A DNA stretch of 64,000 nt from Planctomycetota bacterium (lineage in GTDB: Bacteria; Planctomycetota; UBA11346), in NCBI GenBank assembly GCA_038213805.1, contig JBBQSO010000004.1:52337-116336 (forward strand). The letters run 5' to 3'. Within the stretch, counting starts at the first letter, position 1. Each line of letters begins with the position of its first letter. Positions 4,594 through 64,000 of this stretch are shown here, piece by piece. Below the pieces are notes generated by a model. That model was given only the letters and a program-made list of their open reading frames with translations, did not search any database and was not told where the DNA came from. The translations under genes and the position numbers were made by a program.

Positions 4594-4668
4594 GGCGCGA
4601 TCTGCTCTTTTAGAGCCCGTGCCACGGCGGGCAACGGCGGAACCGGCAGGCTGCCACGGGTCGCCTCT

Positions 4669-7797: not shown

Positions 7798-9195
7798 TCA
7801 GCCAGCGGTAGTGGACACGCTTCCGGGATGCGGCGTGCGCGGCTCGGTGCGGCCGGCCGCCAGGCACAGCCCGAGCGTGGTGCAGAACACGTAACTGGTG
7901 GCGGTGTGCCCCGCGAGGTTCTCGAATTGGCCAGCGACCAGGTAGGTGGTGATCAGCGCGGCGGCCATCGCCCAACGCTGTGGCTGGCTGCGGCGGGTGC
8001 GGAATGCGGCGAGAAGCAGCGTTGCGATCCACGCCGCATGCAGCAGCGCCGCCGGGATGCCGTGCTCTGCGGCGATCGCCAGATGACTGTTGTGGGCGTC
8101 CGGAGCCTCTTTCGCGGTGCCGCTGGCATCGTGGAGCGCGAGTTCTGGATAACGCGCGCGATAGGCGTCTTTGTAGGCCTCGGGACCGCCGGTGCCGAGC
8201 AGCGGTGCGTCCGCGATCAGGCTGGCGGTGGTCCGCCAGATCGCCAGGCGGCCGTCATCGCCGCGCGCCACCTCCAGGATGTGGACCGGGGCCAACAGCC
8301 AGGTGTAGGCGGAAAATGCCGCGACCAGGACCAGCGCGGCCGCTGACCCGATCACCAGACCGCGCCAGCCGCGGCCGGCAACCAGCCCGGCACCGACGCC
8401 CGCGGCAGCGGCCAGGAACGCGCTGCGCGCATTGGCGGCCAGCAAGCCGACACAGGCCAGCGTCAGACCGCACCAGCGGCGTACGCGGCCCGCAGCCGTA
8501 TCGACCGTCGGCAGGTGCAGGAAGACCAGGGCCACCATCGCCATGGTGAAGGCCAGGGTGAGGTGCACCGGCGCGAAACCGGTGCTGTGCTGGAAGCGCT
8601 CGCCCAGTGGTGGCGCAGCGATGTGAAACGGCGGTCTGCCGCCCAACCCGATGGTGAACTGCAGCAGCGCCACCACCACCGCCGCCGCGGCGGTCGCCAG
8701 CAGCGCGCGGCAGGCCCACATGCGCACCCGCGCGTCGGCGAATCCCACCTGGGCCAGGTAGAGGGCGATCCAGCTGTCCATCATGCCGAGGCCGCCAAGC
8801 GGATGCGGATGGCGGTGCAGGGCCAGGACGGTCAGCACGCTGAACACTTGCCACGCCGCGAAGGCCGCGGCGCACCAGAAGCCCGGCAGGCGGTGCAGCG
8901 GGGGCCTGGCGAGCAGCGCACCCACCGCCGCGAGGCCATAGGCCAGGTGCATCACCGCCAAGCCCAGGCACAGCGCGGCCAGCGCCGTGGCCACGCCGAT
9001 CTGCATCAGCAGCAGGCCGATGCGCCGGGGGTGGGAGGCGGGGAGGGAGGCGAGGTGGGTGAAGAAGGAGGCGAGGGGCTCACTGGCCTGGACGGACAGC
9101 GGCAATGGCGGCGCGGATGCGCTCACAGGGCGTTCGGCATGCAACACGGTGAGGGGGAAGGTGGGGCTGGCAGTGGACATCGCAATGGTGCGCAT
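7798..9195 (-). CDS. O-antigen ligase/polymerase (WaaL/Wzy_C) family membrane protein
   Basis: About 12 hydrophobic segments; ARSAFLA, GRLAIW...PLLGTGG and DAHNSHLAIAAEHG motifs. Confidence 0.85.
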   Translation of the reverse strand: MRTIAMSTASPTFPLTVLHAERPVSASAPPLPLSVQASEPLASFFTHLASLPASHPRRIGLLLMQIGVATALAALCLGLAVMHLAYGLAAVGALLARPPLHRLPGFWCAAAFAAWQVFSVLTVLALHRHPHPLGGLGMMDSWIALYLAQVGFADARVRMWACRALLATAAAAVVVALLQFTIGLGGRPPFHIAAPPLGERFQHSTGFAPVHLTLAFTMAMVALVFLHLPTVDTAAGRVRRWCGLTLACVGLLAANARSAFLAAAAGVGAGLVAGRGWRGLVIGSAAALVLVAAFSAYTWLLAPVHILEVARGDDGRLAIWRTTASLIADAPLLGTGGPEAYKDAYRARYPELALHDASGTAKEAPDAHNSHLAIAAEHGIPAALLHAAWIATLLLAAFRTRRSQPQRWAMAAALITTYLVAGQFENLAGHTATSYVFCTTLGLCLAAGRTEPRTPHPGSVSTTAG

Positions 9196-9312
9196 GGCAG
9201 GACGGCATCCCGACGTCTATCCAGATGCCGGGATCTTGGGACGCGGTGCGTCAGATATAGCAGCCATCACCTCAGCGCTCCAGCGGCGGGCCGCAGGGCC
9301 GGGCGCAGACAC

Positions 9313-9344
9313 GCCCCTCCTGCGACGCACGGCGGAGGAGGGGC
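9313..9344 (-). terminator. GC-rich hairpin just downstream of the transaldolase stop (terminator-like or mRNA 3'-protecting)
   Basis: GCCCCTCCT (9313-9321) / AGGAGGGGC (9336-9344); no U-tract. Confidence 0.4.
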
Positions 9345-9358
9345 CTGAATGACTTGCT

Positions 9359-10696
9359 CTAAAGCTTGAAGCCGGCGCCGGTGGAATCCTTCAGGAACCC
9401 CTTCACCGTATCCAGCGACATCTCTCCCAGCCCGCGACCCACGCCGGAGAGCTTCTTGAGCACGTCATGCGGCACGGTGATGACCCCACACCTGGTCTCT
9501 TCCGCCTGGTAGATGTTGAGCAGTTCGCGCGTACTCGCCCACAGCAGCATGGCGCTCGGCACGTCCTCAAGGATGGCGGCGCAGGCGTGCATGTAGGGGA
9601 CCGGGTCGCGGCCGGTGTCGGCGATGCGGCCGGCGAAGACCGAGACCACCGAGGGCGCACCACCGCGCACGGCGTCGGCGGTCTCGACGACCTGCTTGAG
9701 GGTGAGCAGGGCGGTGACGTTGAGCTTCACGCCTTCCTTCGCCAGCTTGCGGATCAGCGGGATGCAGCTCTCGCCCTTGGTATTGGTGATCGGGATCTTG
9801 GTGTAGACGTTCTTGCCCCAGGTGGTGATCAGGCGCGCCTGGCGCTCCATGTCGACGAGGTCGTCCGAGAACACTTCGAAGGAGACCGGCTTGACCGTGA
9901 TCGAGGTCAGCAGGTCTTTGGCGAAGGCCGGGTAGTCCTTGATGCCGACCTTGGCCATCAGCGAGGGGTTGGTGGTGAAGCCCTTGATCACGGGATTCTT
10001 GTCGAGCTCGAGGATGCCCGCCTTGTCGGCGCCATCGGCCCAGATCTGGACCTTGAGCTGGGTGGGGTTGATGACGAGATCGCTCATGGGATGTCCTAGG
10101 GGATGGGGCTGGTCGATGGCGTGGTGGGAGAGGATATGCCGCACAGCTTCACCAAGGTCGGCCAGCTGCAAGGTCGGGGCCGCGGTGGCCGCCTCACCAT
10201 AGCCGGACCCCAGGAGGATGGTCCGGCAGCCGGCCCGGGCCCCGGCGAGGATGTCGGAGTGGCGGTCGCCAACCATCCAGCTGCGCGCCAGGTCGAGGCC
10301 GCGGCGGCGGGCCGCGTCCAGCAACATCCCGGGGTTGGGCTTGCGATCCGGGTGGTCGCCGTCCGCGTAGCATACCACCACCTCGTCCACCGGCAGACTG
10401 GCGGCGAGATGCGCATTGATCGCCTCGACGCGTTCGCGGGTCTGGGTGCCGCGCACCACGTCGGGCTGGTTGGTCACCACCACCAGTTCGAAGCCCGCGG
10501 CCTTGAGCCGACCCAGCTGCAGGGCGGTGCCGGCGGGGATCTCGACCGCGGCGACGTCGCAGGGCGGGTAGGGTCGGCCGCCGCGCAGGACTGCGCGGTT
10601 GAGCACGCCGTCGCGATCGAGGAAGACCGCGTGCCCACGGTGGCCCTGGCCAGCTCCCGCCTGCGGGCCGCCGGCCACTAGGGAACCGATTCCCAC
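9359..10696 (-). CDS. In-frame fusion of a HAD-IIIA sugar-bisphosphate phosphatase (GmhB/LmbK-like) and a transaldolase (LmbR-like; internal start at 10087)
   Basis: N-terminal part: FLDRDGVLN, VTNQPD, RKPNPGM, MVGDRHSD. C-terminal part: ADGAD, GFTTNPSL, SFEV, VYTKIP, SVFAGRIAD. No stop between them. Confidence 0.88.
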   Translation of the reverse strand: MGIGSLVAGGPQAGAGQGHRGHAVFLDRDGVLNRAVLRGGRPYPPCDVAAVEIPAGTALQLGRLKAAGFELVVVTNQPDVVRGTQTRERVEAINAHLAASLPVDEVVVCYADGDHPDRKPNPGMLLDAARRRGLDLARSWMVGDRHSDILAGARAGCRTILLGSGYGEAATAAPTLQLADLGEAVRHILSHHAIDQPHPLGHPMSDLVINPTQLKVQIWADGADKAGILELDKNPVIKGFTTNPSLMAKVGIKDYPAFAKDLLTSITVKPVSFEVFSDDLVDMERQARLITTWGKNVYTKIPITNTKGESCIPLIRKLAKEGVKLNVTALLTLKQVVETADAVRGGAPSVVSVFAGRIADTGRDPVPYMHACAAILEDVPSAMLLWASTRELLNIYQAEETRCGVITVPHDVLKKLSGVGRGLGEMSLDTVKGFLKDSTGAGFKL

Positions 10697-11274
10697 ATGG
10701 TGCGGCTGGCCTTGAGCGCCGGGTGCGACACCAACAGGTGCCAGATCACCCCTTGGAAGGCTTCGGCATGCGGGGTGATGTGCTCGGAGTTGAGGGTGGG
10801 GATGATGATCGCGGCGTCGGCGACGGTGGCGGTGAAGCCGCCGTCCCGGCCGACGATGCCAAGGATGGTGGCCTTGACCTCCCGGGCATGCTGCACTGCA
10901 GCGACCAGATTCGGACTGATGTTTCTCGCCACGTCTCCGCCGCCGACCGAGAGCACCAGGATGCCGTCCTGGGCGTTCAGCCGGCTGACCTTGAGCCAGC
11001 CGACGAACACCGAGGCCCAGCCGTCGTCGTTGGTGCGCGCAGTCAGCTCCGACACGTTGTCGGTGGGCGCATAGGCCTCGAGCCCGGCGATCTTGCGGAA
11101 GTCGTTGACCGCGTGCGAGGCGTTGCCGGCGCTGCCGCCCACGCCCAGGATGAACAGACGACCGCCGCGGGCACGGATCGCGGCGAGGAGCAACGCGGCG
11201 CGCTCGATCACCGCCACGTCGAGCGCGGCGATGATCTGGGTCGCCTCGGCGAGGAAACGCGCGGCGAAGGTCAT
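10678..11274 (-). CDS. SIS-domain phosphosugar isomerase (GmhA/LmbN-like)
   Basis: LGVGGSAGNASHAVND, ELTARTNDDGW, LSVGGG...SPNLV, GRDGG. Confidence 0.9.
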   Translation of the reverse strand: MTFAARFLAEATQIIAALDVAVIERAALLLAAIRARGGRLFILGVGGSAGNASHAVNDFRKIAGLEAYAPTDNVSELTARTNDDGWASVFVGWLKVSRLNAQDGILVLSVGGGDVARNISPNLVAAVQHAREVKATILGIVGRDGGFTATVADAAIIIPTLNSEHITPHAEAFQGVIWHLLVSHPALKASRTMWESVP

Positions 11275-12002
11275 GGGTGGCGTCCTGGTGTGCCGGGGGC
11301 AGTGGCGAGCATCCGGGTGAGGTCGGCGATGCCAGCGAAGGAGCCGATCTCGTGGAAGCGCTCGGCGACCTCGAAGCCGGCGAGGTCGTCCGCCGCCAGG
11401 CGCTCGCGGTAGAGTGTGGCGAGGTCGGCGGGCTGGCCTTCCGGCAGCGCCGCGAAGGCGCTGCGCCGGAAGAGCCCGAGTCCGTAATCGATGTGCTGCA
11501 TCACCGGTGTCTGGACCTGCTTGTCGTAGACGCGGATGCGGCCGGCGGCGAACTCGACATTGCTGCGGTCGTATTGGCCGTGGTTCCGGTAGACGGTCAT
11601 CAGTGCGGACTTTTCGCAGGTGCTGAAGGCATCCTGGACCGCGGCGTGGTCGCAGGTCAGGTAGGAATCGCCGTAGAGCGTGAAGAAGTTTTCGCCGAGC
11701 TGCGGCAGCGCGCTCCGGATGGCGCCGGCGGTGCCGAGCAGGGTCGGGCCATCGAAGACGAAGTCGACGTGGATGCCGAAGGCCGCGCCGTCGCCGACGA
11801 CGTCGCGGATCTGTTCACCGAGGAAGCCGGCGCAGATCACCACCCGGCGGACGCCCTGGCGGCGCAGCAACCGCAGCTGATGGGCGATGAAGGGCTCGCC
11901 GCCGATGTCGATCAGCGCCTTGGGGATCTTCTCGGTCACCGGCCGCAGCCGGGTGGCGAGGCCCCCGGCCAGGATGACCACCGGGAATAGCTCGCGGCTC
12001 AT
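11271..12002 (-). CDS. Sugar-1-phosphate nucleotidyltransferase (HddC/LmbO-like)
   Basis: ILAGGLATRLRPVTEKIPKAL, LGTAGA, LYGDSY, EIGS; ATGA overlaps with neighbours. Confidence 0.9.
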   Translation of the reverse strand: MSRELFPVVILAGGLATRLRPVTEKIPKALIDIGGEPFIAHQLRLLRRQGVRRVVICAGFLGEQIRDVVGDGAAFGIHVDFVFDGPTLLGTAGAIRSALPQLGENFFTLYGDSYLTCDHAAVQDAFSTCEKSALMTVYRNHGQYDRSNVEFAAGRIRVYDKQVQTPVMQHIDYGLGLFRRSAFAALPEGQPADLATLYRERLAADDLAGFEVAERFHEIGSFAGIADLTRMLATAPGTPGRHP

Positions 12003-12982
12003 GCGTGCACCAGCACCTTGGTGCCCTCGAAATCGAAGCGGAAGCGGACCTCGACCAAGCCGGCCTCGCGCATCGCCTTGCGCAGCGACGCCTTGTCTTC
12101 CGCGTAGAACATCAGGAAGCCGCCGCCGCCCGCGCCGATCAGCTTGCCGCCCAGGGCGCCGTGGGTGCGGGCGAGCGCGTACCAGTCGTCGATGCGGTCA
12201 TTCGACATCCTGCCGCTGCGCTGCTTCTTGGTCTCCCAGTGCACGTTCATCAGCTCGGCGAAGCGGTGCAGGTTGCCCTGCTCCAGCGCGGCTTTGCTGT
12301 CCAGGCCGAGTTGCTTCACGTTGTGCAGGTTTGCGGTCATCTCCGTATCGCCGTGCGCGCTCTTGTCGTCCTGCTCCTTGAGCACCGCCGAAGCGGAGCG
12401 CGAATAGCCGGTGAAGAACAGTAGCAGATTGTCCTCGAGCTGGTGCAGAGTGTCGGCGCCGACCGCCAGCGGTGCCGCCTCGACCGTGCCGTCCGGATGG
12501 AAGTGGAAGCAGGTCAGCCCACCGTAGGCAGCGATGTACTGGTCCTGTTTGCCGATCGGTTCCTTCAGCAGGTCCATCTCGATGTGGCAGGCCTGCTCGG
12601 CGAGGTCGCGCGGGTGGATGAAGTCCTTCTTCAGGCTGTGCAGGCCCTTGAGCAGCGCGGTGGTGAAGCTGCCCGACGATCCCAGCCCAGTGCCGGCGGG
12701 GATGTCCGCCATGCTCGAGATCTCAAGGTAGTGGCCGTTGATGCCGGTCAGACGCATCGCCTCGCGGATGATCGGGTGCTGCAGCTCGGCGGCAGACGCC
12801 ACGCGCTCCATCTTCGAGTACTTGACGATCAGGTCCGGGACGAAGGTCTGGTGGAAGGTGATGTAGACGTACTTGTCGATCGCGCCGGCGATCAGGAAGC
12901 CGCCGTGATCGCGGTAATACGACGGCAGGTCGGTGCCGCCGCCGCCAAGGGAGATGCGCAGTGGGCTGCGGGTGATGATCAT
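11999..12982 (-). CDS. GHMP-family sugar-phosphate 1-kinase (HddA/LmbP-like)
   Basis: PLRISLGGGGTDLP, PAGTGLGSSG, GKQDQY, GGKLIGAGGGGF. Confidence 0.92.
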   Translation of the reverse strand: MIITRSPLRISLGGGGTDLPSYYRDHGGFLIAGAIDKYVYITFHQTFVPDLIVKYSKMERVASAAELQHPIIREAMRLTGINGHYLEISSMADIPAGTGLGSSGSFTTALLKGLHSLKKDFIHPRDLAEQACHIEMDLLKEPIGKQDQYIAAYGGLTCFHFHPDGTVEAAPLAVGADTLHQLEDNLLLFFTGYSRSASAVLKEQDDKSAHGDTEMTANLHNVKQLGLDSKAALEQGNLHRFAELMNVHWETKKQRSGRMSNDRIDDWYALARTHGALGGKLIGAGGGGFLMFYAEDKASLRKAMREAGLVEVRFRFDFEGTKVLVHA

Positions 12983-13974
12983 CGCGAGAGCTCGTAGATG
13001 CGTGCGACGATGGTGAGGGCCGCCTGGGCGTCGCGCAGGCCAGGGCGGGGCTCGCGGCCGAGGCGGATGTCGTCGAGGAAGTCCGCGAACTCGAGCGCCC
13101 ACGAACGGTCGCCGCGCGGATATTCCCAGGCCTGGGTGTCGGGTGGCCCCATCTCGGGCAGCATGCGGTACCAGGTCAGGCGCTCGACGCCGTAGCTGCC
13201 GCCCAGGCCTGTGATGTCGAGCTTGCCGGTGCGGCCGTAGAGTTCGAACGAGAACAGGTTCTTCCACTCGCTGCAGCTGGCGTGCAGGGATGCGGTCTGG
13301 CCGCGCGCGGTGCGCAGCAGCAGGAAGGCATTGTCGTCGACGGGCATGTCCCAGTAGCAGGTCTGGGCGTGGCCCTGCACCGAGGTGAACTCCTCGCCGA
13401 GCAGCAGGCGCGCGAGGTCGATGAGATGCACGCCCTGGTCGATGAGTTCGCCGCCGCCGGACAGCGCGGGATCGGCGCGCCATTCCTTCTCGTAGCCGAG
13501 GCGGCCGCCGTGGCCATAGCGGGCGCGGCAGAACATCAGTTCGCCGAGCGCGCCGGCAGCGACGAGTTCCTGGGCCTTGAGCAGCGCCGGGTGGTAGCGG
13601 TGGTTGAAGCCCACGCGTACGCGCGCACCGGTGCGCGCGGCGGCCGCGATCACCGGGTCGAGTTCGGCGGCGCGGCGCGCGCCCGGTTTCTCGATCAGGA
13701 CGTGCAGCCCGCGCTCGGCGGCGGCGAGCGCGACCACCGGCAGCTGGTCATGGGTGGTCGAGACCAGGGCGATGCCGACCCCGGGCCGCGCGATGGCGGC
13801 GCGCCAGTCGGTGTGTGTGGTCGCGCCCGGTGCGGTAGCGGCCAGCGCGATGGCGCGCTCGACAACCGTGTCGGCGCAGGCGATCAGCTGGCCCGGCGCC
13901 AGCAGCTTCGCGCGCTTGGCGCCGATCATTCCACAGCCGACTATGGCGACGCCCAGGTGGTTCGGATCAGGCAT
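12979..13974 (-). CDS. Gfo/Idh/MocA-family oxidoreductase (LmbZ/CcbZ-like)
   Basis: IVGCGMIG, HVLIEKP, VGFNHRYHP, GGGELIDQGVHLID. Confidence 0.9.
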   Translation of the reverse strand: MPDPNHLGVAIVGCGMIGAKRAKLLAPGQLIACADTVVERAIALAATAPGATTHTDWRAAIARPGVGIALVSTTHDQLPVVALAAAERGLHVLIEKPGARRAAELDPVIAAAARTGARVRVGFNHRYHPALLKAQELVAAGALGELMFCRARYGHGGRLGYEKEWRADPALSGGGELIDQGVHLIDLARLLLGEEFTSVQGHAQTCYWDMPVDDNAFLLLRTARGQTASLHASCSEWKNLFSFELYGRTGKLDITGLGGSYGVERLTWYRMLPEMGPPDTQAWEYPRGDRSWALEFADFLDDIRLGREPRPGLRDAQAALTIVARIYELSR

Positions 13975-14842
13975 CCCAGTCCTTCCCACGGTCCTTGGCG
14001 ACGATGCGCCGCAAGGTGTAGATGTCGCTACCGGCCAATTCGCCGGCGCGCTCCGGCAGGCGCTGCCAGTGGTCCCACACCGCGCTCAGCAGGCGGCCGG
14101 TGATGCCGTCGCTGGCCGCGCTGGCGAGGAACTCGGCGAGCTCCGCGCCCTTCTCGGGCGGCGTGCCGCCGGCGGCCTGCTGCTTGCGGGCACGCTCGTG
14201 GAAGCCAGCGCTGACCTTGGCCGGGCCGGCGGCGAGCACCTCGTCGAGCATGCGGGTGTTGAGTGCGCCCGGGGCGATGGCGTTGACGTCGACGCGCGCC
14301 GCCTTGAGTTCCTCGGCGAGGGTCTCGGTGAGTCGCACCACCGCCGCCTTGGAGGCGGCATAGGCGCTGATGAAGGGCAGCGGCGCGGTCGCCCCGCCGC
14401 CCGAGAGGTTGATGATCTTGCCGTAGCCGGCGGTGCGCAGCAGCGGGATCGCCGCCTGGCACATCGACATCACGCCGAAGAGGTTGATGGCGACCGCTTC
14501 GCGCCAGGCCGCGCCGTCGACCTCCTCCAGCGCGCCCATCGGGCCGTAGACGCCGGCGTTGTTGACCAGCGCGGTGAGCCTGCCGAATTCGCGCTGCGCG
14601 CGCGCCACCGCGGCGCGGCACTGCGCATCGACGGCGACGTCGCAGGGCATCGCCACGACGCGCTGGCCGGGGGCGGTGGCACTCGCCGTGAGCCGCTGCG
14701 CGACCTCGTGCAGCAAGGCCTCGCCGCGCGCGACGATGAGCACGCTGGCGCCGGCCGCGACGAAGCGTTCGGCGATGGCGCGACCGAGGCCCTGGTTGGC
14801 GCCGGTGATGAGGGCGGTGCGTCCGCTGAGCGGCAGGTTCAT
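13967..14842 (-). CDS. Classical SDR oxidoreductase
   Basis: TGANQGLG, NNAG, YAASK, VNAIAPG. Confidence 0.92.
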   Translation of the reverse strand: MNLPLSGRTALITGANQGLGRAIAERFVAAGASVLIVARGEALLHEVAQRLTASATAPGQRVVAMPCDVAVDAQCRAAVARAQREFGRLTALVNNAGVYGPMGALEEVDGAAWREAVAINLFGVMSMCQAAIPLLRTAGYGKIINLSGGGATAPLPFISAYAASKAAVVRLTETLAEELKAARVDVNAIAPGALNTRMLDEVLAAGPAKVSAGFHERARKQQAAGGTPPEKGAELAEFLASAASDGITGRLLSAVWDHWQRLPERAGELAGSDIYTLRRIVAKDRGKDWDA

Positions 14843-16197
14843 GGTGCGGTGGCCGAGGCGGGATGGGCGGGCGGCTGGCCGGTGGCGGCAGGCCGTCCGG
14901 TGGCGACGTAGAGGATGCCCGGCGCGCTGGCCAGGCCGGCGGCGAGGAACCAGTTGGGATCGATGACGCGCGCGTGGCGCATGCCCGCGCTGAAGTCGCC
15001 GGCGGCGAGGCGCCGGAAGTCCGGCCACTCGGTCGCGACCACCGCGGCGTGCGCCCCGGCGAGCGCGCCGGCGGCGCTGGCGTGCAGGCGGATGACGCCG
15101 ACCAGTTCCGCGGGCAGAGCCGGCACCGCGGGATCGTGGGCCTGGACCGTGATACCGCGCGCGTGCATCCAGCGGCACAGCTCCACCGCCGCCGAGCGGC
15201 GCAGGGTGTCGGTGCCGGGCTTGTAGGTCAGGCCGAGGACCGCGACCACCGGGCGCTCCACCCCGGTGGTGAGCAGTGCGACCTTGTCGCGCAGCCAGGC
15301 CTTGTGCAGGTCGTTGCTGGCGAGCACGCCGTCGACCAGCGGGGTGCCCAGTCCATGGTCCCGACCAAAGGCCTGCAGGAAGCGCAGGTCGCGCGCCAGG
15401 GTGCCGCCGGCGAAGGCGCTGCCGGGCGACAGGTAGGCCTTCTCGCCGATGCGGCCTTCGCTCTTCAGGCCGCGTTCGACCTCGCGCGCATCCGCGCCAA
15501 CCGCCTCGCAGATGCGCGCGAGTTCATTGGCGAAGGTCACCGACAGGCCGAGGAAGGCGTTGATCGCGTGCTTGGTCATCTCCGCGGATTCGAGCGACAT
15601 CCACTCGATGCGCGTGCTGAACGGCGTCATCAGGTCCGCCAGGATCGGGCGCGCTGTTTCGTTGTCGGTGCCCAGCACGATGCGCTCCGGGGCATTGAAG
15701 CAGGCGATGGCCTTGCCCAGGCGCAGGTTCTCGGGCGAATAGGCGACCTGGAGGCCCAGTCCCGCCCAGTCCCGGGCCAGCGCGCGCGTGAAGCCGACGG
15801 GTACCTGCGAGGTGATCAGCACCACCGTGCCTGGGCGCAGGTGCGGGCGCAGTGTTTCGAGTCGGGCGCGCACGAAGGGCACGTCGGCCTCATCGCGCTC
15901 GTCGACCGGGGTGTCGCAGGCCACCACCAGCACGGCCGCCTTGGCGAGCGCGGCGGCGGGGTCCGTGGTGAAGGCGATGCGGCCCGCCGCGAGGCTGTCC
16001 GCCAGGCTCTGGTCCAGCCCGGGCTCGGCGATCGGCGCCCGGCCGGCGGCGAGATCCGCCACGGTCGCGCCCTCGGGATCGAGGCCGACCACCTGGTGGC
16101 CGGCGGCGGCGAGGCAGGCGGCGGTGACGCAGCCGAGGTGCCAGAGGCCGAAGACCGTGACCTGCCGGGGCATGGCGGCGACGGGTGCCGTGCTCAT
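14839..16197 (-). CDS. UDP-glucose/GDP-mannose dehydrogenase family protein lacking the catalytic Cys (LmbL-like)
   Basis: GLWHLG, EPGL, SPENLRLG, SAEMTKHAINAF, LGLTYKPGTDTLRRS; GGSC-x-PKD motif replaced by AGGTLARD. Confidence 0.88.
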   Translation of the reverse strand: MSTAPVAAMPRQVTVFGLWHLGCVTAACLAAAGHQVVGLDPEGATVADLAAGRAPIAEPGLDQSLADSLAAGRIAFTTDPAAALAKAAVLVVACDTPVDERDEADVPFVRARLETLRPHLRPGTVVLITSQVPVGFTRALARDWAGLGLQVAYSPENLRLGKAIACFNAPERIVLGTDNETARPILADLMTPFSTRIEWMSLESAEMTKHAINAFLGLSVTFANELARICEAVGADAREVERGLKSEGRIGEKAYLSPGSAFAGGTLARDLRFLQAFGRDHGLGTPLVDGVLASNDLHKAWLRDKVALLTTGVERPVVAVLGLTYKPGTDTLRRSAAVELCRWMHARGITVQAHDPAVPALPAELVGVIRLHASAAGALAGAHAAVVATEWPDFRRLAAGDFSAGMRHARVIDPNWFLAAGLASAPGILYVATGRPAATGQPPAHPASATAP

Positions 16198-16565
16198 GGC
16201 GCGGTTTCCGGACGGCCGAGCGCCATCAGCACCACGCCCACCGCGATCACCGCCATTCCTGCGATCAGCATGGGATTGAGGCGTTCGCCGAGCAGCAGTG
16301 TGCCGATCACGGCCGAGATGACGAAGTGCAGCGACATCGCGAAGGGCACCAGGAAGATCAGGCGTTCGCGCCCGACCAGCACGATGAGCACCAGGAAGGA
16401 CAGCCCGTACAGACCGACGCCGAGCCAGAAGAACGGCTCTGTAAGCAGTTCCCGGGCGCGGTCGAGTGACGCCGCCGGCGCGGCGCGCTTGAGGAAGTAC
16501 ATCCCGGTGTTGGCGAGCAGCGCCTGGACCACGACCAGGATGCCGGACAGCGCGAGCCCGCTCAT
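16194..16565 (-). CDS. Small 4-TM EamA/SMR-like membrane protein (ArnE/F-like candidate polyprenyl-P-sugar flippase)
   Basis: 123 aa with four hydrophobic helices and LLLGERL...AG...I..GV; coupled to both neighbours by 4-nt overlaps. Confidence 0.72.
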   Translation of the reverse strand: MSGLALSGILVVVQALLANTGMYFLKRAAPAASLDRARELLTEPFFWLGVGLYGLSFLVLIVLVGRERLIFLVPFAMSLHFVISAVIGTLLLGERLNPMLIAGMAVIAVGVVLMALGRPETAP

Positions 16566-17518
16566 GCGCGTGCCGCGAGAACCCAGTCCTCGCGCTGGAG
16601 GTAGGCGACGGTGCGCTCGACGGCCGCGCGGATGGTCAGCTTTGGCTGCCAGCCGAGCGCGCGGATGCGCGTGGTGTCGAGGAAGATGAAGGGGTTGTCG
16701 CCGATCCAGCCGCGGTCACCGCCGCAGTAGTCGAGACGGGGTTTCACGCCCAAGGCGTCGCAGATCCAACCAATCGAGTCGTTCACCTGGCAGTAGTGGT
16801 CGGTGCCGAGGTTGAAGAGGTTGACCTTGCCGTCGGCCTTGGCCATGGCGAAGAGCATCGCGTCGAGGCAGTCGCCGATGTAGAGGTAGCTTTTGCGCTG
16901 GCGGCCGTCACCCAGCACCGGCAGGCGCGTGGGGTCCTGCCCGAGCTTCTTCATGAAGTCGAAGATGTGGCCGTGGGTGTAGCGTTCGCCGAGGATCGAG
17001 ACGAAGCGGAAGATCCAGCTCTGGAAGCCGAAGCCCTCGCAGTAGGCGGCGATCAGGCCCTCGCCGGCGAGCTTCGAGGCGCCATAGAGCGACGTCTGCA
17101 CCGGGAACGGTCCGTCCTCGGGCGTGGGGATGACCGTGGCTTCGCCATAGACCGACCCGGTCGACGAGAAGGCGATCTTGCGCACCCCGCCCGCCCGCAT
17201 CGCCTCAAGCACGTTCCAGGTGGCGATGGTGTTCTGCTCGAGGTCGCGGCGCGGGTGGTCGGTGCCGAAGCGCACGTCGGCGTTGGCCGCGAGGTGCATG
17301 ACCGCGTCGCAGCCGGCGACCGCGGCGTCAAGGGCCGGGCGGTCAAGCAGATCCCCGCGCACCAGCCGGAATCGGGGATCGGCGAGCGCACCGGCGAGGA
17401 AGCGCTCCTGCCCGGTCGAGAAGTTGTCGTAGCCCACGACCTCGTGCCCGTCCGCCAGCAGGCGGTCGGTGAGCGAAGAGCCGATGAAGCCGGCCGCGCC
17501 GGTGATCAGGTAGCGCAT
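16562..17518 (-). CDS. NAD-dependent nucleotide-sugar epimerase/dehydratase (LmbM-like)
   Basis: ITGAAGFIG, HLAA, SSTGSVYG, YGASK. Confidence 0.92.
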   Translation of the reverse strand: MRYLITGAAGFIGSSLTDRLLADGHEVVGYDNFSTGQERFLAGALADPRFRLVRGDLLDRPALDAAVAGCDAVMHLAANADVRFGTDHPRRDLEQNTIATWNVLEAMRAGGVRKIAFSSTGSVYGEATVIPTPEDGPFPVQTSLYGASKLAGEGLIAAYCEGFGFQSWIFRFVSILGERYTHGHIFDFMKKLGQDPTRLPVLGDGRQRKSYLYIGDCLDAMLFAMAKADGKVNLFNLGTDHYCQVNDSIGWICDALGVKPRLDYCGGDRGWIGDNPFIFLDTTRIRALGWQPKLTIRAAVERTVAYLQREDWVLAARA

Positions 17519-18504
17519 GCGGCTTCCGGGGTGCGGGCGGCAGGCGCCAGGGGCGGGTGCTGGGGGAAGCCGAGGGCCTCTTCGACGATGAACAGCGGGC
17601 GCTGCTTGGTCTCGTCGTAGATGCGGCCGATGTACGCGCCAAGCACGCCCATGCCGATGAGCTGCATGCCGCCCATGAACAGCACCAGGATCATCAGGCT
17701 GGGCACGCCCGAGGCGAACTGCCAGTTCGTGCCGAGCTTCATGTAGGCGATCACCAGCGCGCTGACCATCGCCAGGGCGGCGCAGGCCAAGCCGACCTTG
17801 ATCATGAAGTTGAGCAGGTAATCGGAAAAACAGATAATGCCGTTGAAACCGATGCGCAGCGAACCGGTGATGCGGTTGTACTTGCCCTCGCCGCCGGCGC
17901 GCGCCTCGCGGTCGAAGGGCAGCAGCACGGTTTTGAAGCCGACCACCGCGACCAGCCCGCGCAAGAAGCCGTGGCCTTCCTTGAGCTTCTTCAGCTCGTC
18001 GACCACCGCGCGGTCCATCAGGCGGAAATCGCCGGTGTTGCGCGGGATGCGCACGTTGCTGATCTTGTTGATGAACCAGTAGCCGAGGTACGAGATCAAC
18101 CGCTTGAGCGGATGCTCGCCATCGCGCGAACGACGCTGCGGCACCACCACCTTCCAGCCGCTGCGCCACTGGCGCACCATCTCGCCGATCAGCGCCGGTG
18201 GATCCTGCAGGTCGCAGTCGATGATCACCACCGCAGCGCCCGCGGCGTGGTGGATGCCGCCCATGGTCGCCGCGGGCTGGCCGAAGCGCCTGGAGAACGC
18301 CAGCAGCTTGATGCGCGGGTCGGCGGCGTGCGCCTCGCCGATCAGCGCCAGGGTGCGGTCACGGCAGGGGTCGGCGCAGAAGATGATCTCGTAGTCCTCC
18401 GTCACCTCCGCCAGCGCGGCGCGCATCGCGGTCATGAACGTGGGCAGGGTCTGCTCCTCGTTGTATACCGGGACCACGATTGAGAGCAGGGGGATGGCGG
18501 TCAC
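17506..18504 (-). CDS. GT2 polyprenyl-phosphate glycosyltransferase (GtrB/ArnC/YkoT-like)
   Basis: VVPVYNEE, SRRFGQ, DCDLQDPP, TGDFRLMDR, FLRGL, two C-terminal TM helices and YIGRIYDETKQRP. Confidence 0.92.
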   Translation of the reverse strand: MTAIPLLSIVVPVYNEEQTLPTFMTAMRAALAEVTEDYEIIFCADPCRDRTLALIGEAHAADPRIKLLAFSRRFGQPAATMGGIHHAAGAAVVIIDCDLQDPPALIGEMVRQWRSGWKVVVPQRRSRDGEHPLKRLISYLGYWFINKISNVRIPRNTGDFRLMDRAVVDELKKLKEGHGFLRGLVAVVGFKTVLLPFDREARAGGEGKYNRITGSLRIGFNGIICFSDYLLNFMIKVGLACAALAMVSALVIAYMKLGTNWQFASGVPSLMILVLFMGGMQLIGMGVLGAYIGRIYDETKQRPLFIVEEALGFPQHPPLAPAARTPEAACAT

Positions 18505-19229
18505 GGAATCCCCGGCTTCGGCTGCAGGGTGAGCCCGATGACCAGGTTGGCCGTGACCACGGGCACCTTCAGGGGGAAGAAGCTGCGGTGGCGGATGATG
18601 AAGCGCTGTTCGAGCTCGCCGATGATCTCATGCGGCCGGTTGATGTGCTCCACCGCGACGAACCAGTCGTAGCTCTGCCCATAGCGTTTCTCGAACATCG
18701 GCCGCGCGGAGAAGTTTCGCGCCAGGGTGTAGGCCAGGCCGCCTTCGCACGGGATGACCACCGAGAAGCGGCCATCGGGCTTGAGCAGGCGGTGGACCTC
18801 GGCGATGGCGCGCGGCAGGTCGGGCAGGTGCTCAAGCACGTGGATGGCGAGCACGCGGTCGAAGAACCCGTCCGCGAAGTCGAGGCGCTGCTGGCAGTCG
18901 CCGACCGCGGCCCGCACGCCTGGGTGCTGGTGGACAAGGATTTCGGCCAGCTCGGCGCGCAATTCGTTGACGTAGTATTCCTGGTCGGCGAGGTTCTCGT
19001 GGGCGAGGTGTGCGCCGATGCCGGCACCGATCTCCAGGGTCCGGCCACCGCTGACCCGTGAACGCAGCGGATAGCCATGATTGAAGCGCTCGATCATCCC
19101 GTACTTGGTGGGCAGGGTCCTCAACCATTCGCGCATGAAGTCGTCGCGGATGCGCTGCTGCTCAGCGGTCAGGCTGGGCAGGCGCTTCGGCCATTTGCCG
19201 GCGCCATGGCGTGGGGGCGCATCGATCAT
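18501..19229 (-). CDS. Class I SAM-dependent methyltransferase
   Basis: LEIGAGIG, FDRVLAIHVLEHL, LLKPDG. Confidence 0.88.
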   Translation of the reverse strand: MIDAPPRHGAGKWPKRLPSLTAEQQRIRDDFMREWLRTLPTKYGMIERFNHGYPLRSRVSGGRTLEIGAGIGAHLAHENLADQEYYVNELRAELAEILVHQHPGVRAAVGDCQQRLDFADGFFDRVLAIHVLEHLPDLPRAIAEVHRLLKPDGRFSVVIPCEGGLAYTLARNFSARPMFEKRYGQSYDWFVAVEHINRPHEIIGELEQRFIIRHRSFFPLKVPVVTANLVIGLTLQPKPGIP

Positions 19230-19556
19230 TCCAGCACCGTCCTCACAACTCGCTCCGTTGGTGCCCCGCGGACGGGGGAACCGAAGGCAGTATGGCCAGG
19301 ACACGGGTTGCGACCATCATGGCACTGATCTGGTCCGGTTGGCGATAGGGGCGGGCAAATGGTCACTCGGCGGGTGTCAGTTAAGCCCGAGTCCGATGAA
19401 TTCAAAGGCAATATGCCAGTCTGCGTGGCTTGATGGCACAAGGCGAGCGGCCCCTGCATGGTTGGACTTGGACCGACGGCTCAGAGTGGGAGGAAGGCTT
19501 GGCCGGTGTTGGCGCTGGGCAATGCGCCTCCCGCGAGCGCCATTCCGCGCAGCCGT

Positions 19557-21586: not shown

Positions 21587-21828
21587 TGCAAATCATCCGA
21601 GAGCAGAGGGAAAATTGAGGATGAGCTGGGCTGTTCCGCTTGTCCAGCCTCGATTTCGCTCTCGCGCGCCTCGATCTCGCCTGTACATGCCGGTGGGCGG
21701 CCGATGCTTCGGCGCTCGTCTGTTGGCGGGCGGCCGCGCAACTTGCACTGCCCTTCTCCGGGCGTAAAAAGGGGAGTCGGAGGCGTCGTGGAAGGCTCCG
21801 CATCAGTCCATGGCGCAGGTGAAATCTG

Positions 21829-31012: not shown

Positions 31013-33490
31013 TCAGGGTAGCCGTCGCTGTTTCGTCCCGCGCAAAGAGCAGCGCCTGAATTCGACTGCGGATTCCGTATGACCTGACGCATAGACGATG
31101 GCGGTAGCCGCATTCGCGGGTGCGATGACCTCCTGGGATTCCTCGCCCCACTCGGGGCCTGACTCAAAGACCTGGATGGTCGTCGTGATGAATGCGCCTG
31201 AGGAATCCAGCCAGTTGATCTGGCTGCGATATTGGGCCCGTCCGGATACACTGCGTACCGAGACCTGGTTGAGATAGCGCCCCCCTGGTCGGATCGCGAC
31301 CGCCTGCGAGGCGGGCCGGCTAACCGAGACCCTTATGGCATGCGCAGCAGGGTCGAAGCATTCGCCCTCAGGCAGGTTCCATCGGTGCGCCGTGACGAAG
31401 TCCGGCTCCTCGAGGAGCTCTGTCGGGTATTGCGCCCCCGGTTTTAGCCTGCGTACCGAATAGGTGCCGAAGCTTTGGACGTCTTCGGTCAGGTCAGCGA
31501 CGAGGGCAGTAGGGGCGGGACCGAGGGAGGATTTGCTATGCTCCTCATCGAAGATGAGGAGCCCGATCTCATTCTCCTGGAAGACATTCAGCATTTCCTC
31601 GGCGCTCTTCGCCTGCGCGAGGGCATCGAGGAACCGGTCGTTGTACCAGTTGGCATAGAGGGCTCGCGCGGCGAGGCCTGCGCCCATGGTTGGGGCGATG
31701 AAGGCCACGGGCTGGTGCTGTGTATTGAGCGCGTTGACGAAGGCCACCGCCCTGCGGATCGGGATCCTTTTCGCAATGTAGTCATCGCGGTCGGCCTGGC
31801 TCAGAAGTGACCGCCACGGCATGATCGGATAAGTCCATGACGCGCCTGCGCTCCAGAACAAGAGGTTCAGCCCGAGCGTAAGCAGGCTTGTCGCAGTCCA
31901 TGCCCAGCCCGCCCGGTAAGACGCTGCTTCCGCGATGGCGACGCCAATTCCCGCTATCAGCAGCGGCCATGCCGGGAAGACATAGCGGAGGTAGGCGGTC
32001 TGTGCGAAGACCAGGGCCACGAAGGCGGCGCCCACTGCGATGAGGAGCAGAGCCTTGCGTCCCTGGGGGAAAGCCAGGACGGCGATCGAAGGCAGGAGCA
32101 GGAGGAGCCATTCAAAACCGCCTGCGCCGGGATAGGACTCGAGGTGGAGATGCGATTCGAATGTCACCTCATAGGGGGTGCGTATGCCCAGGCCGTGGCC
32201 GAAAAGGGACGACGATTCAAAATTGGTCGGCTTGAAGAACGGCGATTTGAAGAATCCGTTGCAGAACGGAAAAACCGGATTTCCGGTGACCAGCCATGCG
32301 TACGCGTAAGGGGCGCCGCCGGCGCAAGCACCCGCGATTGCGGCCAAGCCGAGGAAGCTCGCGTCCCTGGGATCCGGGCGCTTGCGCGCGTTCACGATGA
32401 AGGCGATGAGGACGAGCGGTACGAGCAGCGCGCTGATGGTCTTCGTCGCCACTGAGAAGCCGAGCAGGATGGCTGTCAGGACCAGGCGCCAGCCCGGATG
32501 GGCTTCGCCGGGGTGGGCACGCAGCGCCACGAGGACTGCGGCGGTGGTGAATGCGGTCCAGACCGATTCAATGAACAGCGAGGCCCCTTCGGTGAAGGTG
32601 AGCGGGCTGGCGACGAAGAGCAGCATCGCCCAGCGCGCGCCGCCTAGGGTTCCTCCCGCCCAAAGCACCAGTTCCCGGATCAGCAGCGCCGTGACCAGTA
32701 GGGCCCCCATGTTGATGAGCCTCGTCGCGGCTTCGCCGCCCAGCATGTAGCCGATAGCGTACAGCCAGTCGCCGTCCATGGGCATGACCGCCCAGACATA
32801 GGTGGTGAATTCGAAGGACCACTGGTGGCCGCTGGCGAGTTGTGCCGGCACGAACAAGTGCATGGCCAGGGCATCGGAACCGACCTCGGGCAGCAATGCG
32901 ATGAGGAATGACAGCGCGGCGATGACGACGAGTGGCGCTTCCAGCCAGCCGCATCCCATGCCATCTAGCGGATTATCCCTGGTGGCAAAGATGCCGCGGA
33001 CGCCAGCAGCCAAGGGCCTCAGCGCGCGGCCCGCGTAGAGGATGGGCAGAGTAAGGAGGACTGCATAGACGCCGGGGTAGTTGATGGGCAGGTGGGCGAT
33101 CAGCCCGATGACGGTCGCGTGGAGGCCGGCGCCCAGGGCCAGTGATACTGCCGGACCCTGGTTGGTTCCACCGAGGGCCCTCGTCACCGCTCCGCCGAGA
33201 GCGAAGCAGGAGAGGGCGAGCCAGGAAACCACCAGCAGGGGCCAGACACTGCCCGTGCCCACCGCGAGGGCTCCGATGGCGAGGGCCCCGATGGCGAGCG
33301 GCGAGCGGCGGGTGATCGCAGCGCCGATGATGAGGGCCGCCGATGCCACCGCGATCAGGATCAGGTGGTGTGGATCCGCACCCGTCCAAGGTATGCGACA
33401 GAGCCCGTAGATAGTTATGGCCATTCCGGTCAGAAGGGCTGACCAGAACGCGACCGGCTTGAGCATGCCCATGGCGCGGAGCGGGATCAT
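31013..33490 (-). CDS. Large polytopic membrane protein, probable GT-C (ArnT/PMT-like) glycosyltransferase, with a C-terminal beta-sandwich (CBM-like) domain
   Basis: More than 15 TM segments; PEVGSDALAMHL, TGNPVFPF and YLRYVFP; soluble C-terminal about 130 aa (SQAVAIRPGGRY...INWLDSSG...APANA). Confidence 0.7.
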   Translation of the reverse strand: MIPLRAMGMLKPVAFWSALLTGMAITIYGLCRIPWTGADPHHLILIAVASAALIIGAAITRRSPLAIGALAIGALAVGTGSVWPLLVVSWLALSCFALGGAVTRALGGTNQGPAVSLALGAGLHATVIGLIAHLPINYPGVYAVLLTLPILYAGRALRPLAAGVRGIFATRDNPLDGMGCGWLEAPLVVIAALSFLIALLPEVGSDALAMHLFVPAQLASGHQWSFEFTTYVWAVMPMDGDWLYAIGYMLGGEAATRLINMGALLVTALLIRELVLWAGGTLGGARWAMLLFVASPLTFTEGASLFIESVWTAFTTAAVLVALRAHPGEAHPGWRLVLTAILLGFSVATKTISALLVPLVLIAFIVNARKRPDPRDASFLGLAAIAGACAGGAPYAYAWLVTGNPVFPFCNGFFKSPFFKPTNFESSSLFGHGLGIRTPYEVTFESHLHLESYPGAGGFEWLLLLLPSIAVLAFPQGRKALLLIAVGAAFVALVFAQTAYLRYVFPAWPLLIAGIGVAIAEAASYRAGWAWTATSLLTLGLNLLFWSAGASWTYPIMPWRSLLSQADRDDYIAKRIPIRRAVAFVNALNTQHQPVAFIAPTMGAGLAARALYANWYNDRFLDALAQAKSAEEMLNVFQENEIGLLIFDEEHSKSSLGPAPTALVADLTEDVQSFGTYSVRRLKPGAQYPTELLEEPDFVTAHRWNLPEGECFDPAAHAIRVSVSRPASQAVAIRPGGRYLNQVSVRSVSGRAQYRSQINWLDSSGAFITTTIQVFESGPEWGEESQEVIAPANAATAIVYASGHTESAVEFRRCSLRGTKQRRLP

Positions 33491-33536
33491 CGGCAGGCGT
33501 GAAGCGCGCTGGCCGAGCTTCGTGCGGTGCCACTCA

Positions 33537-34694
33537 TCATCGGGCGCTCGCCTGCTGGAGAAATGAGGGGACGTGGTGGATGCCGGGGATCGAGAAGAAC
33601 TTTCCGACGGCCTCGATCGTGCGCATCGCAGCGAGGCCGTCGCCATAGGGTGACGCCCCGGTGGACATTGCTTTATAGGCGGCACCGTCACGCAGCAGGA
33701 CATCTGCCTCCTGACGGATGAGGGCCGTCGAATCGCCGACCAGCTTGACCACGCCGGCCGCCACGGCCTCGGGGCGTTCCGTCTCCCGTCGTAGCACCAG
33801 CACCGGCTTGCCGAGGGCGGGCGCCTCCTCCTGGACCCCGCCGGAGTCGCTGAGGATCAGGTGCGCCTTCTTCATGGCTGCCACGAATCGGCCGTAGGGC
33901 AGTGGTTCCACCAGGCGCACCCGGGGGTGGCCGCCCAGGCGCTCGTGCACCGGCTTCTTCACGTTCGGATTGGGGTGGACTGGCCATAGGATCTCGACGT
34001 CGGGGTGGCTTGCGAGGATGCCTTCGATGGCGGTGATGATGTCGCTGAGTGGCTTGCCGAAGTTCTCGCGCCGATGGCAGGTGACCAGTACGGTGCGCAG
34101 AGCCGGGTCGAGGTCGATGCCGAGGTCGACGCCGCGTTCGATCGCCATGTGCAGGGCGTCGATGACGGAATTCCCGGTGACTTCGATCTTCGTTCCGGCG
34201 ACGCCTTCGCGCAGCAGGTTCTCGCGCGCGGATTCAGTGGGGGCGAGATAGAGGCTGGTGACGCGGTCGGCGACGACGCGATTGAACTCCTCGGGGAAGG
34301 GATTGAGCATGTCGCAGCTGCGCAGCCCGGCCTCGACGTGGGCGAACGGGATGCGCCGGTAGAAGGCGACCATCGCGCTGGTCATCACCGTGGTGGTGTC
34401 GCCCTGGGCGATCACCATGTCCGGGGCCATCTTCACGAACGCCTCGTCGAGACCGGTTACGGCCCTGGCGGTCAGCCCGGACAGCGACTGGTCCGGGAGC
34501 ATCAGATCGAGGTCGACGTCGGGGACGATCCCGAAGATCGAGAAGACCTCGTCCGCCATCTCGCGATGTTGCGCGGTCGCGACGACGCGCACGTCGGCCC
34601 AGGTCTGGCGGCGCAGGGCAAGGATGATGGGAGCCATCTTTATGGCCTCGGGCCGGGTGCCGACGACGCAGGAAAAGATCCGTTTTCTGTTCAT
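33537..34694 (-). CDS. wecB: UDP-N-acetylglucosamine 2-epimerase (non-hydrolysing)
   Basis: GTRPEAIKMAP, QGDTTT, HVEAGLRS, PFPEEFNR, HRRENFG, DSGGVQEEAP. Confidence 0.97.
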   Translation of the reverse strand: MNRKRIFSCVVGTRPEAIKMAPIILALRRQTWADVRVVATAQHREMADEVFSIFGIVPDVDLDLMLPDQSLSGLTARAVTGLDEAFVKMAPDMVIAQGDTTTVMTSAMVAFYRRIPFAHVEAGLRSCDMLNPFPEEFNRVVADRVTSLYLAPTESARENLLREGVAGTKIEVTGNSVIDALHMAIERGVDLGIDLDPALRTVLVTCHRRENFGKPLSDIITAIEGILASHPDVEILWPVHPNPNVKKPVHERLGGHPRVRLVEPLPYGRFVAAMKKAHLILSDSGGVQEEAPALGKPVLVLRRETERPEAVAAGVVKLVGDSTALIRQEADVLLRDGAAYKAMSTGASPYGDGLAAMRTIEAVGKFFSIPGIHHVPSFLQQASAR

Positions 34695-46423: not shown

Positions 46424-46845
46424 GGCTACCCTCAATCCGACCCGGCACAGCCGGAATCAAGACATCTTACGATGAGCATGCAGGAGGGGTTGCCACAAAC
46501 CGGAGCAAGCCAAGCCGAACCTGATCTCGAACACTCTGGCGGATGGGTGCGGCCACAAGTCAACTTGGCAATCATCATGCTGGAACTGGCCACCGCTGAA
46601 TTCTAGGCATGTGTGCTGCGACAGGATGAACCGTCTGTTGGAGTCCGGGAGTTTGTTCGGGTCCGCGTACCGTTCAATAGGGATTCCTCGTTTGCGTTGG
46701 CCACGTCAGCCCTCCCTGGAATCGGAATTATTGCCACAAGAACAAATACAACAACATCTTGAACGATTTCATCTGCGCCGCGGAGACGCATTGCGCATTT
46801 CCGAAGCCGCTGCCCGCCGAACTCCAGTTCGTCATTCGCGCGGTA

Positions 46846-56578: not shown

Positions 56579-56600
56579 GTGGGTGGATCGGTTCGGGTGG

Positions 56601-58157: not shown

Positions 58158-58162
58158 GCCGC

Positions 58163-60716: not shown

Positions 60717-60718
60717 GC

Positions 60719-63997: not shown

Positions 63998-64000
63998 CGT

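Follow-up and report, generated by a model that had tools for sequence, protein, structure and literature searches.

The closest described relative of the pathway considered here is the one that makes the sugar of the lincosamide antibiotics (Streptomyces lincolnensis and S. caelestis). Published gene tables (PMC4351081 Table 2; PMC12945683 Table 1) list the lmb sugar genes in the order K, L, M, N, Z, P, O, S, R, together with their functions. In these tables (PMC4351081; PMC12945683) LmbK is a phosphatase, LmbL a dehydrogenase, LmbM an epimerase, LmbN an isomerase, LmbZ an oxidoreductase, LmbP a kinase, LmbO a guanylyltransferase, LmbS an aminotransferase and LmbR a transaldolase. In the parts of the same two papers that treat the late steps, LmbM, LmbL, CcbZ and CcbS take GDP-octose to GDP-lincosamide (PMC4351081; PMC12945683). 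Here we describe an operon with a similar set of enzyme families in a 64,000-nt stretch of contig JBBQSO010000004.1 from an uncultured Planctomycetota bacterium (source genome G000, 90% complete, 180 contigs). This whole stretch is called the window below. We read the operon as one pathway with its delivery system, making a transaldolase-primed, activated eight-carbon (C8) sugar for the cell envelope, and we give that reading a probability of about 0.5.

The operon lies on the minus strand at 9359-19304. Its 11 open reading frames (ORFs), with families assigned by Pfam and NCBIfam, are as follows.

18501..19304, minus strand: class I S-adenosylmethionine methyltransferase, operon gene 1; longest ORF from GTG 19304, first ATG 19229; Pfam Methyltransf_11 (55.7 bits) and Methyltransf_23
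17506..18504, minus strand: family 2 glycosyltransferase (GT2) of the polyprenyl-phosphate glycosyltransferase type (GtrB/ArnC/PgfS-like); Pfam Glycos_transf_2 (82.9 bits)
16562..17518, minus strand: epimerase of the extended short-chain dehydrogenase/reductase (SDR) type, here EPI; Pfam Epimerase (168 bits)
16194..16565, minus strand: small membrane protein, 123 aa, about four helices; Pfam TMEM234 (21.9 bits, cut-off 30.1) and NCBIfam ArnE (25.7 bits, cut-off 92)
14839..16197, minus strand: dehydrogenase of the UDP-glucose dehydrogenase (UGDH) family without the catalytic Cys, here the Cys-less UGDH; all three UDPG_MGDP_dh Pfam domains
13967..14842, minus strand: classical SDR, presumed ketoreductase; Pfam adh_short (182.8 bits)
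12979..13989, minus strand: Gfo/Idh/MocA oxidoreductase, here Gfo; Pfam GFO_IDH_MocA_C3 (105 bits) and the N-terminal domain
11999..12982, minus strand: GHMP sugar-1-kinase, HddA/LmbP-like by family; Pfam GHMP_kinases_N and _C
11271..12002, minus strand: sugar-1-phosphate nucleotidyltransferase (NT); Pfam NTP_transferase
10678..11274, minus strand: SIS-domain ketose-phosphate/aldose-phosphate isomerase; Pfam SIS_2 (29.9 bits)
9359..10696, minus strand: HAD-TAL fusion, with a HAD-IIIA (GmhB-like) phosphatase at about residues 22-190 and a transaldolase (TAL) at residues 213-444

The true starts of the epimerase (17518), the SDR (14842) and the kinase (12982) fall inside the longest ORFs. Each of the ten ORF junctions is an overlap, of 4 to 23 nt, so the operon can rightly be called tightly coupled, as a first-pass annotation of this sequence had done. 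That annotation had named twelve families between 9359 and 19229, and every one of them is present at 9359-19304 by Pfam and NCBIfam. Two details of it change. Its upper limit of 19229 corresponds to the first ATG in the methyltransferase gene, whose longest ORF reaches 19304, and the phosphatase and transaldolase that it had listed apart are not separate genes, since they share a single 445-aa ORF with no stop between the domains, leaving 11 ORFs. The same single HAD-TAL frame occurs in two genomes of the same genus, G010 (95% identical) and G003, so the fusion is not an artefact of the G000 assembly. The orthologous operon in G003 (locus L012) has no Cys-less UGDH and shows many frame breaks in tblastn, which a degraded copy or poor assembly could explain. 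A scan of the operon for promoters and terminators gave no signal exceeding shuffled controls.

The family match to the Lmb enzymes supports an octose route by analogy, and five core steps can be proposed from it. The TAL half of the fusion would move a three-carbon unit from fructose-6-phosphate (F6P) or sedoheptulose-7-phosphate (S7P) onto a pentose-5-phosphate, giving octulose-8-phosphate (as for LmbR). The divergent SIS isomerase would convert octulose-8-phosphate to the aldose (LmbN), the GHMP kinase would phosphorylate C1 (LmbP), the HAD half would remove the terminal phosphate (LmbK), and the nucleotidyltransferase would yield a nucleoside-diphosphate (NDP) octose, probably GDP-linked (LmbO). 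Tailoring by EPI, the Cys-less UGDH (C6 alcohol to ketone), Gfo and the SDR would then produce a neutral, probably deoxygenated sugar, which the methyltransferase may O-methylate. The first-pass annotation had proposed an 8-deoxy-octose with the SDR as its source, which is a hypothetical detail of this scheme. For delivery, the GT2 would attach the sugar to undecaprenyl phosphate, the resulting lipid-linked sugar would be flipped by the small membrane protein, and some periplasmic transferase would place it on lipopolysaccharide (LPS) or another envelope glycan.

The genes of this proposed pathway form a cassette that recurs widely. A scan with the SIS protein, using one genome per species, gave at least 600 matching stretches, of which 593 were confirmed among those listed; the best 80 were kept with their flanks, and genes were counted in them by tblastn (at least 40% identity and at least 50% coverage). 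Related loci thus occur in at least 593 species-level genomes from many phyla, and the earlier suggestion that the cassette may exist elsewhere is borne out by the scan and the survey of synteny. The companion guess, that such copies would be annotated as heptose biosynthesis, did not hold: RefSeq names of the orthologues are generic ('galactokinase', 'SIS domain-containing protein', 'transaldolase'). The best 80 loci include Acidobacteriota, Verrucomicrobiota, Planctomycetota, Eremiobacterota, Elusimicrobia and Nitrospirales, along with Legionella and other Legionellales, Burkholderiaceae, Halieaceae, a Bradyrhizobium metagenome-assembled genome and the cultured Rhizobium panacihumi KCTC 62017. 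Orthologues (61-63% identity) were also found on replicons of Rhizobium jaguaris, Rhizobium sp. CB3060 and Lawsonia intracellularis. Literature searches, with supplements outside their scope, found no paper describing the cassette.

The full nine-gene order, EPI, Cys-less UGDH, SDR, Gfo, kinase, NT, SIS, HAD and TAL, is complete in 13 of the 80 loci, from several phyla, and the arrangement is therefore not due to chance. The kinase was found in 56 of the 67 loci with enough upstream sequence. Orthologues of Gfo are present in 37 of the 80 loci and those of the SDR in 30, the SDR standing between the Cys-less UGDH and Gfo whenever all three are present. A GT2 homologue lies upstream of the cassette in eight loci, and orthologues of the methyltransferase (47-53% identity) adjoin it in two (L067 and L069). 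Annotated flanks (L016, L019, L067 and L069) hold GtrA-family proteins, further methyltransferases and acyltransferases.

A second architecture was found in another genome of the same phylum (G029). There the genes run in the order SIS, HAD and TAL, a pair of SDR epimerase/dehydratase genes, a gene for an HldE-like protein whose domains are swapped, Gfo, a UGDH that has Asn at the Cys position, and a further epimerase, and the locus adjoins WaaA and an MsbA-like transporter. The same gene order is seen in Bradyrhizobium. The SIS-HAD-TAL group is thus paired with two different activation chemistries, both times together with Gfo and a Cys-less UGDH. Among 301 Bradyrhizobium genomes sampled, 12 have this HldE-type cassette (loci such as L110-L113, in G329, G208, G311 and G122), and of 10 tested for pufLM, 4 carry it. 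Four Thermoanaerobaculia loci (L044, L062, L064 and L081) show a further arrangement, with DegT-type aminotransferase genes 3-5 kb from the SIS gene and the EPI/UGDH/SDR/Gfo set missing; they might represent versions of the pathway that make amino sugars.

The transaldolase domain scores 306.4 bits against TIGR02134, exceeding the cut-off of 281.95, which no TAL in 14 control genomes reached. Three residues of the Thermoplasma transaldolase 3s0c are conserved in it, a Glu, a Lys and a Phe; we take them to be, in turn, the catalytic residue, the one that forms the Schiff base and the one that separates transaldolases from aldolases, so that the enzyme appears catalytically intact. TAL is adjacent in 63 of the 70 loci with at least 1.5 kb beyond the HAD gene, and HAD and TAL share one open frame in 6 of the 64 loci having both. 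Among five genomes without TAL at the cassette locus, four have a TIGR02134-type TAL above the cut-off elsewhere, once beside a second copy of the kinase. A separate, long housekeeping TAL is present in three of five cassette genomes tested. The transaldolase is, in this sense, dedicated to the cassette.

The first-pass annotation had also held the cassette to be distinct from the standard heptose route, and several lines of evidence agree. The source genome has a canonical ADP-L-glycero-beta-D-manno-heptose operon, HldD-GmhB-GmhA-HldE with an adjacent heptosyltransferase (contig C3, locus L097, about 7910-12896), so it holds two separate higher-sugar activation routes. The canonical operon contains no TAL. 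We tested the cassette proteins one by one against NCBIfam equivalog cut-offs. The SIS isomerase reaches 51 bits against TIGR00441 gmhA (cut-off 209.45), the kinase 149.1 bits against HddA (cut-off 600), and the NT 65.7 bits against HddC (cut-off 300). The HAD domain scores 79.2 bits against beta-GmhB (cut-off 178) and 39.6 bits against alpha-GmhB (cut-off 250). The best NCBIfam match of the NT is MurU, at 121 bits (cut-off 250). The SIS isomerase is 27% identical to the GmhA of its own genome, versus 55-73% to cassette orthologues in other phyla. Aligned to Burkholderia GmhA, it keeps a His that is presumably catalytic, has Asp in place of the neighbouring Glu, and has a loop several residues longer at the STSGKS stretch, presumably the phosphate-loop region. 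By these comparisons it belongs to a family distinct from GmhA.

The Cys-less UGDH aligns over its full length with the Sphingomonas UGD 4a7p (216 bits), with Thr opposite the catalytic Cys. The motif reads GGTLARD here and GGTL(A/M/L)RD in all 17 cassette orthologues aligned; in the canonical UGD of the same genome (contig C110) it is GGSCFPKD, with the Cys retained. The NAD loop is GLWHLG in the cassette clade (GLGHLG in L026), versus GxGYVG in the two canonical family members of G000. A UGDH without that Cys cannot finish the four-electron oxidation to a uronic acid, and the protein with Thr in its place is therefore not uronic-acid-forming. A secondary C6 alcohol is found only in heptoses and longer sugars, and it is natural to infer that the enzyme would carry out a two-electron oxidation of such an alcohol to a keto sugar. 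Its earlier assignment to a higher-sugar pathway, and not to a UDP-glucuronic acid module, accords with the Thr in 17 of 17 orthologues and with the synteny. An ESM Atlas look-up returned only generic names for this protein.

The nearest solved relatives of EPI are 3ehe (292.7 bits) and 8rdg (252.3 bits), followed by 3icp and 3aw9. Passages of PMC12171764 place 3EHE/8RDG-type enzymes in an archaeal subgroup of promiscuous GDP-sugar 4-epimerases that prefer GDP-sugars, with PhGal4E_1 (PDB 8RDG/8RDH), A. fulgidus 3EHE and P. calidifontis 3AW9 as members. The relationship points to a GDP-linked substrate and to epimerisation at C4, and EPI is probably a GDP-sugar 4-epimerase. The solved relatives of Gfo are distant (best 90.7 bits).

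The first two genes and the small membrane protein suggest how the sugar might be used. That a GT2 and a methyltransferase are coupled to the cassette had been proposed before, and the GT2 of the operon is indeed of the GtrB/ArnC type, with two C-terminal hydrophobic helices. It scores 241 bits against PgfS (cut-off 500) and 147 bits against ArnC (cut-off 529) in NCBIfam, under both equivalog cut-offs. The small membrane protein is kept in G003 at 75%, and in the cassettes of L067 and L019 a GtrA-family protein stands in its place. It is weakly ArnE-like and makes a weak candidate for the flippase of the lipid-linked sugar.

The operon sits in an LPS/O-antigen region. Around it the window carries RmlA, RmlB and RmlD homologues, many GT1, GT2 and GT4 genes, Wzm/Wzt ABC-transporter genes, and two membrane proteins of the following kinds.

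7798..9216, minus strand: Wzy_C-family membrane protein (O-antigen ligase or polymerase type); Pfam Wzy_C (59.4 bits), seven hydrophobic segments
31013..33856, minus strand: PMT/ArnT-like GT-C membrane protein; Pfam PMT (29.8 bits), at least 11 hydrophobic segments

The Wzy_C-family gene is 143 nt downstream of the operon. Neither the 80 loci nor G003 contain a homologue of it, and it is given here as context only. The PMT-like GT-C is 12 kb from the operon and has no homologue beside the other cassettes among the 80 loci; one might speculate that it is the periplasmic transferase for the lipid-linked sugar.

As to chain length, we give C8 about one half of the weight, C7 about one third and other lengths the remainder. 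For C8 speak the conserved, sometimes fused, dedicated TAL, the Lmb-like tailoring set, and the presence of a complete second, diverged set of heptose-type enzymes in genomes with a heptose route of their own. The product could instead be a modified heptose, which we think less likely. TAL would then only boost S7P from F6P and erythrose-4-phosphate, a divergent NDP-D-glycero-D-manno-heptose core would follow, and tailoring at the secondary C6 alcohol and the ring would give an epimerised, keto-reduced or methylated heptose, likewise lipid-linked. The kinase, SIS, HAD and NT proteins all have heptose models as their best or near-best named families (the best for the kinase is still HddA), and the nearest solved relatives of the SIS isomerase are all phosphoheptose isomerases. 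A Cys-less UGDH would suit the secondary C6 alcohol of a heptose equally well. Any transaldolase also interconverts S7P; TIGR02134 is a general family, named simply 'transaldolase' by NCBI; and the fusion is the only TAL_FSA gene found in the 90%-complete source genome, where it may for that reason have a housekeeping role. Heptoses are common in surface glycans, and no linear octose from a bacterial surface glycan was found in our literature searches, though cultured carriers exist (Rhizobium, Lawsonia). What tells against a heptose is that all four scores fall far under the equivalog cut-offs, that G000 already makes heptose from S7P by its separate TAL-free operon, that genomes with a housekeeping TAL still keep one with the cassette, that the cassette TAL is physically fused to the pathway phosphatase, and that the HldE-type variant duplicates all the heptose-pathway steps beside TAL. 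Further observations weigh against the octose reading. Seven of the 70 evaluable loci have no adjacent TAL, and one of the five genomes tested (G348) has no TIGR02134-type TAL. The pairing of UGDH with Gfo, which the first-pass annotation had named, is seen in the 13 complete cassettes and is not obligatory, the Cys-less UGDH being absent in the variants G003, L065, L069 and L080. The flippase assignment draws on TMEM234 and ArnE scores that are both below cut-off. No conserved GT-C, WaaL or flippase partner was found in the 80 loci, so a periplasmic transferase is not kept with the cassette. The resemblance to Lmb/Ccb is one of family level, by published descriptions. An RpiB gene 3.4 kb from the operon lends no support for a ribose-5-phosphate supply: it was found in none of the 80 loci, the idea of it as the supplier was rejected on that ground, and its adjacency here is lineage synteny only.

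The remaining alternatives carry much less weight. TAL might act on arabinose-5-phosphate, hexose-6-phosphate or heptose-7-phosphate and so give a different C8 or a C9-C10 sugar; transaldolases do accept several aldose phosphates, and G000 makes heptose-7-phosphate through its own GmhA. We consider this improbable, and no positive evidence for it was found. The HldE-type cassette does occur in photosynthetic Bradyrhizobium, a group known, from passages of PMC4743980, for the C10 sugar bradyrhizose, but the cassette is also present in non-photosynthetic genomes. Nor is it 40-44 kb from an rfaL-like gene, unlike the published candidate cluster for bradyrhizose. A link to bradyrhizose was examined and is unsupported, the rfaL-like genes lying on other contigs or at least 100 kb off, versus 40-44 kb for the published 11-gene cluster. 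Another way to divide the operon would be into two unrelated modules, an Arn/Rgt-like set (Ugd, UDP-uronate epimerase/decarboxylase, GT2 and flippase) for an undecaprenyl-phosphate uronate or pentose, and a neighbouring heptose module. Ugd, an SDR epimerase, an ArnC-like GT2 and an ArnE-like protein do make up an Arn-type collection of families. This division is very improbable, however, and is largely refuted by the Cys-to-Thr change and the synteny: all 17 orthologues have Thr where the catalytic Cys would be, which makes uronic acid formation impossible by the established mechanism, a canonical Cys-bearing UGD is encoded elsewhere in G000, and EPI and the Cys-less UGDH accompany the kinase-to-TAL core in different phyla, in most cases with no GT2 (present in 8 of 80 loci). 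Lastly, the operon might belong to a lincosamide-like antibiotic cluster and not to a surface-glycan pathway, for which the family-level match to the lmb sugar genes is the sole argument. The chance of this is close to nil. The operon has no NRPS (nonribosomal peptide synthetase) adenylation or carrier domain, no mycothiol-type genes and no resistance genes, and it lies among rml genes, Wzm/Wzt, glycosyltransferases and the Wzy_C protein. It also has no aminotransferase, as the first-pass annotation had noticed: no such domain was found in the 11 ORFs, and no DegT-like match in the window.

Some other loci were seen in passing. A plasmid of Streptomyces sp. NBC_00868 (L114, 53412-56918) encodes a SIS isomerase, a HAD phosphatase, a GalT-type uridylyltransferase and a kinase, without a transaldolase and among glycogen-synthase-like genes; its kinase is 38% identical to that of the window. 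It was rejected as an lmb cluster, being a TAL-less SIS-HAD-GalT-kinase module. Within the window, a 1783-aa frame at 38112-43463 (minus strand) has methyltransferase, GT2 and GT1 domains and is adjoined at 44155-46456 (minus strand) by Wzt, with a Wzt_C carbohydrate-binding domain, and Wzm; together these look like an ABC-transporter-dependent O-antigen polymerase with a chain-terminating methyltransferase. Genes at 55580-64000 (minus strand) for a PhyH-family dioxygenase, an NDP-hexose C-methyltransferase (Methyltransf_13/14), an SDR dehydratase and a nucleotidyltransferase suggest a separate pathway for a branched-chain (C-methyl) deoxysugar. The sole plus-strand gene within the glycan region encodes an adenylyl-sulfate (APS) kinase (21823-22446), which may serve glycan sulfation. 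At the edge of the window two MerR-type regulators (368-1249 and 3706-4668, minus strand), one with a B12-binding domain (CarH-like light or B12 sensor), adjoin an amine-oxidase/phytoene-desaturase-like flavoprotein and an IclR regulator.

Returning to the octose reading, its most specific form is that the cassette makes an NDP-activated linear octose, probably deoxygenated and O-methylated, that the lincosamide-type octose pathway is common in envelopes, and that the 3EHE/8RDG epimerases are orphan members acting on GDP-octose. This we put forward tentatively, at a shade under even odds. If it is true, a type of octose synthesis so far known from lincosamide antibiotics alone would be common in the making of envelope glycans, in hundreds of bacterial species of many phyla; carriers of the cassette range from Acidobacteriota and Verrucomicrobiota to Legionella, Rhizobium, Bradyrhizobium and the pig pathogen Lawsonia. 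A C8 product would mean an overlooked class of envelope sugars. It would bring the evolutionary source of the lincosamide sugar genes into view, and it would give a function to a large Cys-less branch of the UDP-glucose dehydrogenases and to solved but orphan GDP-sugar epimerases. Because there are cultured carriers (Rhizobium panacihumi KCTC 62017 and Rhizobium jaguaris), the question is open to direct test.

Compared with known systems, the operon combines parts of several. With Gtr/Arn lipid-linked glycosylation it shares a GT2 that has C-terminal membrane helices and is nearest to PgfS and ArnC, a small multi-helix membrane protein in the operon, and GtrA-family proteins in orthologous cassettes. 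It differs in that the flippase is under cut-offs, no GT-C is conserved with the cassette, and the donor would be a higher-carbon sugar. The Cys-less UGDH has the three-domain architecture of UDP-glucose 6-dehydrogenase (Ugd) but has Thr for Cys and GLWHLG for GxGYVG. The archaeal GDP-sugar 4-epimerase subgroup supplies the closest solved relatives of EPI; its natural substrate goes unnamed in passages of PMC12171764 that describe it. The GmhA/HddA/GmhB/HddC heptose route shares four enzyme families and their reaction logic (isomerase, 1-kinase, terminal phosphatase and nucleotidyltransferase) with the cassette, whereas the cassette adds a dedicated transaldolase, all four of its proteins are far under the equivalog cut-offs, and its SIS family is distinct.

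The lincosamide pathway remains the closest match. Eight of its nine enzyme families are found in the cassette, at family level by the published gene tables, and the Z-P-O adjacency, which the first-pass annotation had named together with the eight families, agrees with those tables (PMC4351081, PMC12945683), as does the L-M adjacency (PMC4351081 Table 2). Both pathways would start with a transaldolase, and both have a UGDH-family and Gfo/Idh/MocA pair beside an epimerase. The cassette differs in having an SDR where an aminotransferase would stand, in its fused HAD-TAL, and in the further genes coupled to it, which encode a GtrB/ArnC-type GT2, the small membrane protein and the methyltransferase. 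Its setting differs too, being an LPS/O-antigen region in a Gram-negative bacterium and no antibiotic cluster.

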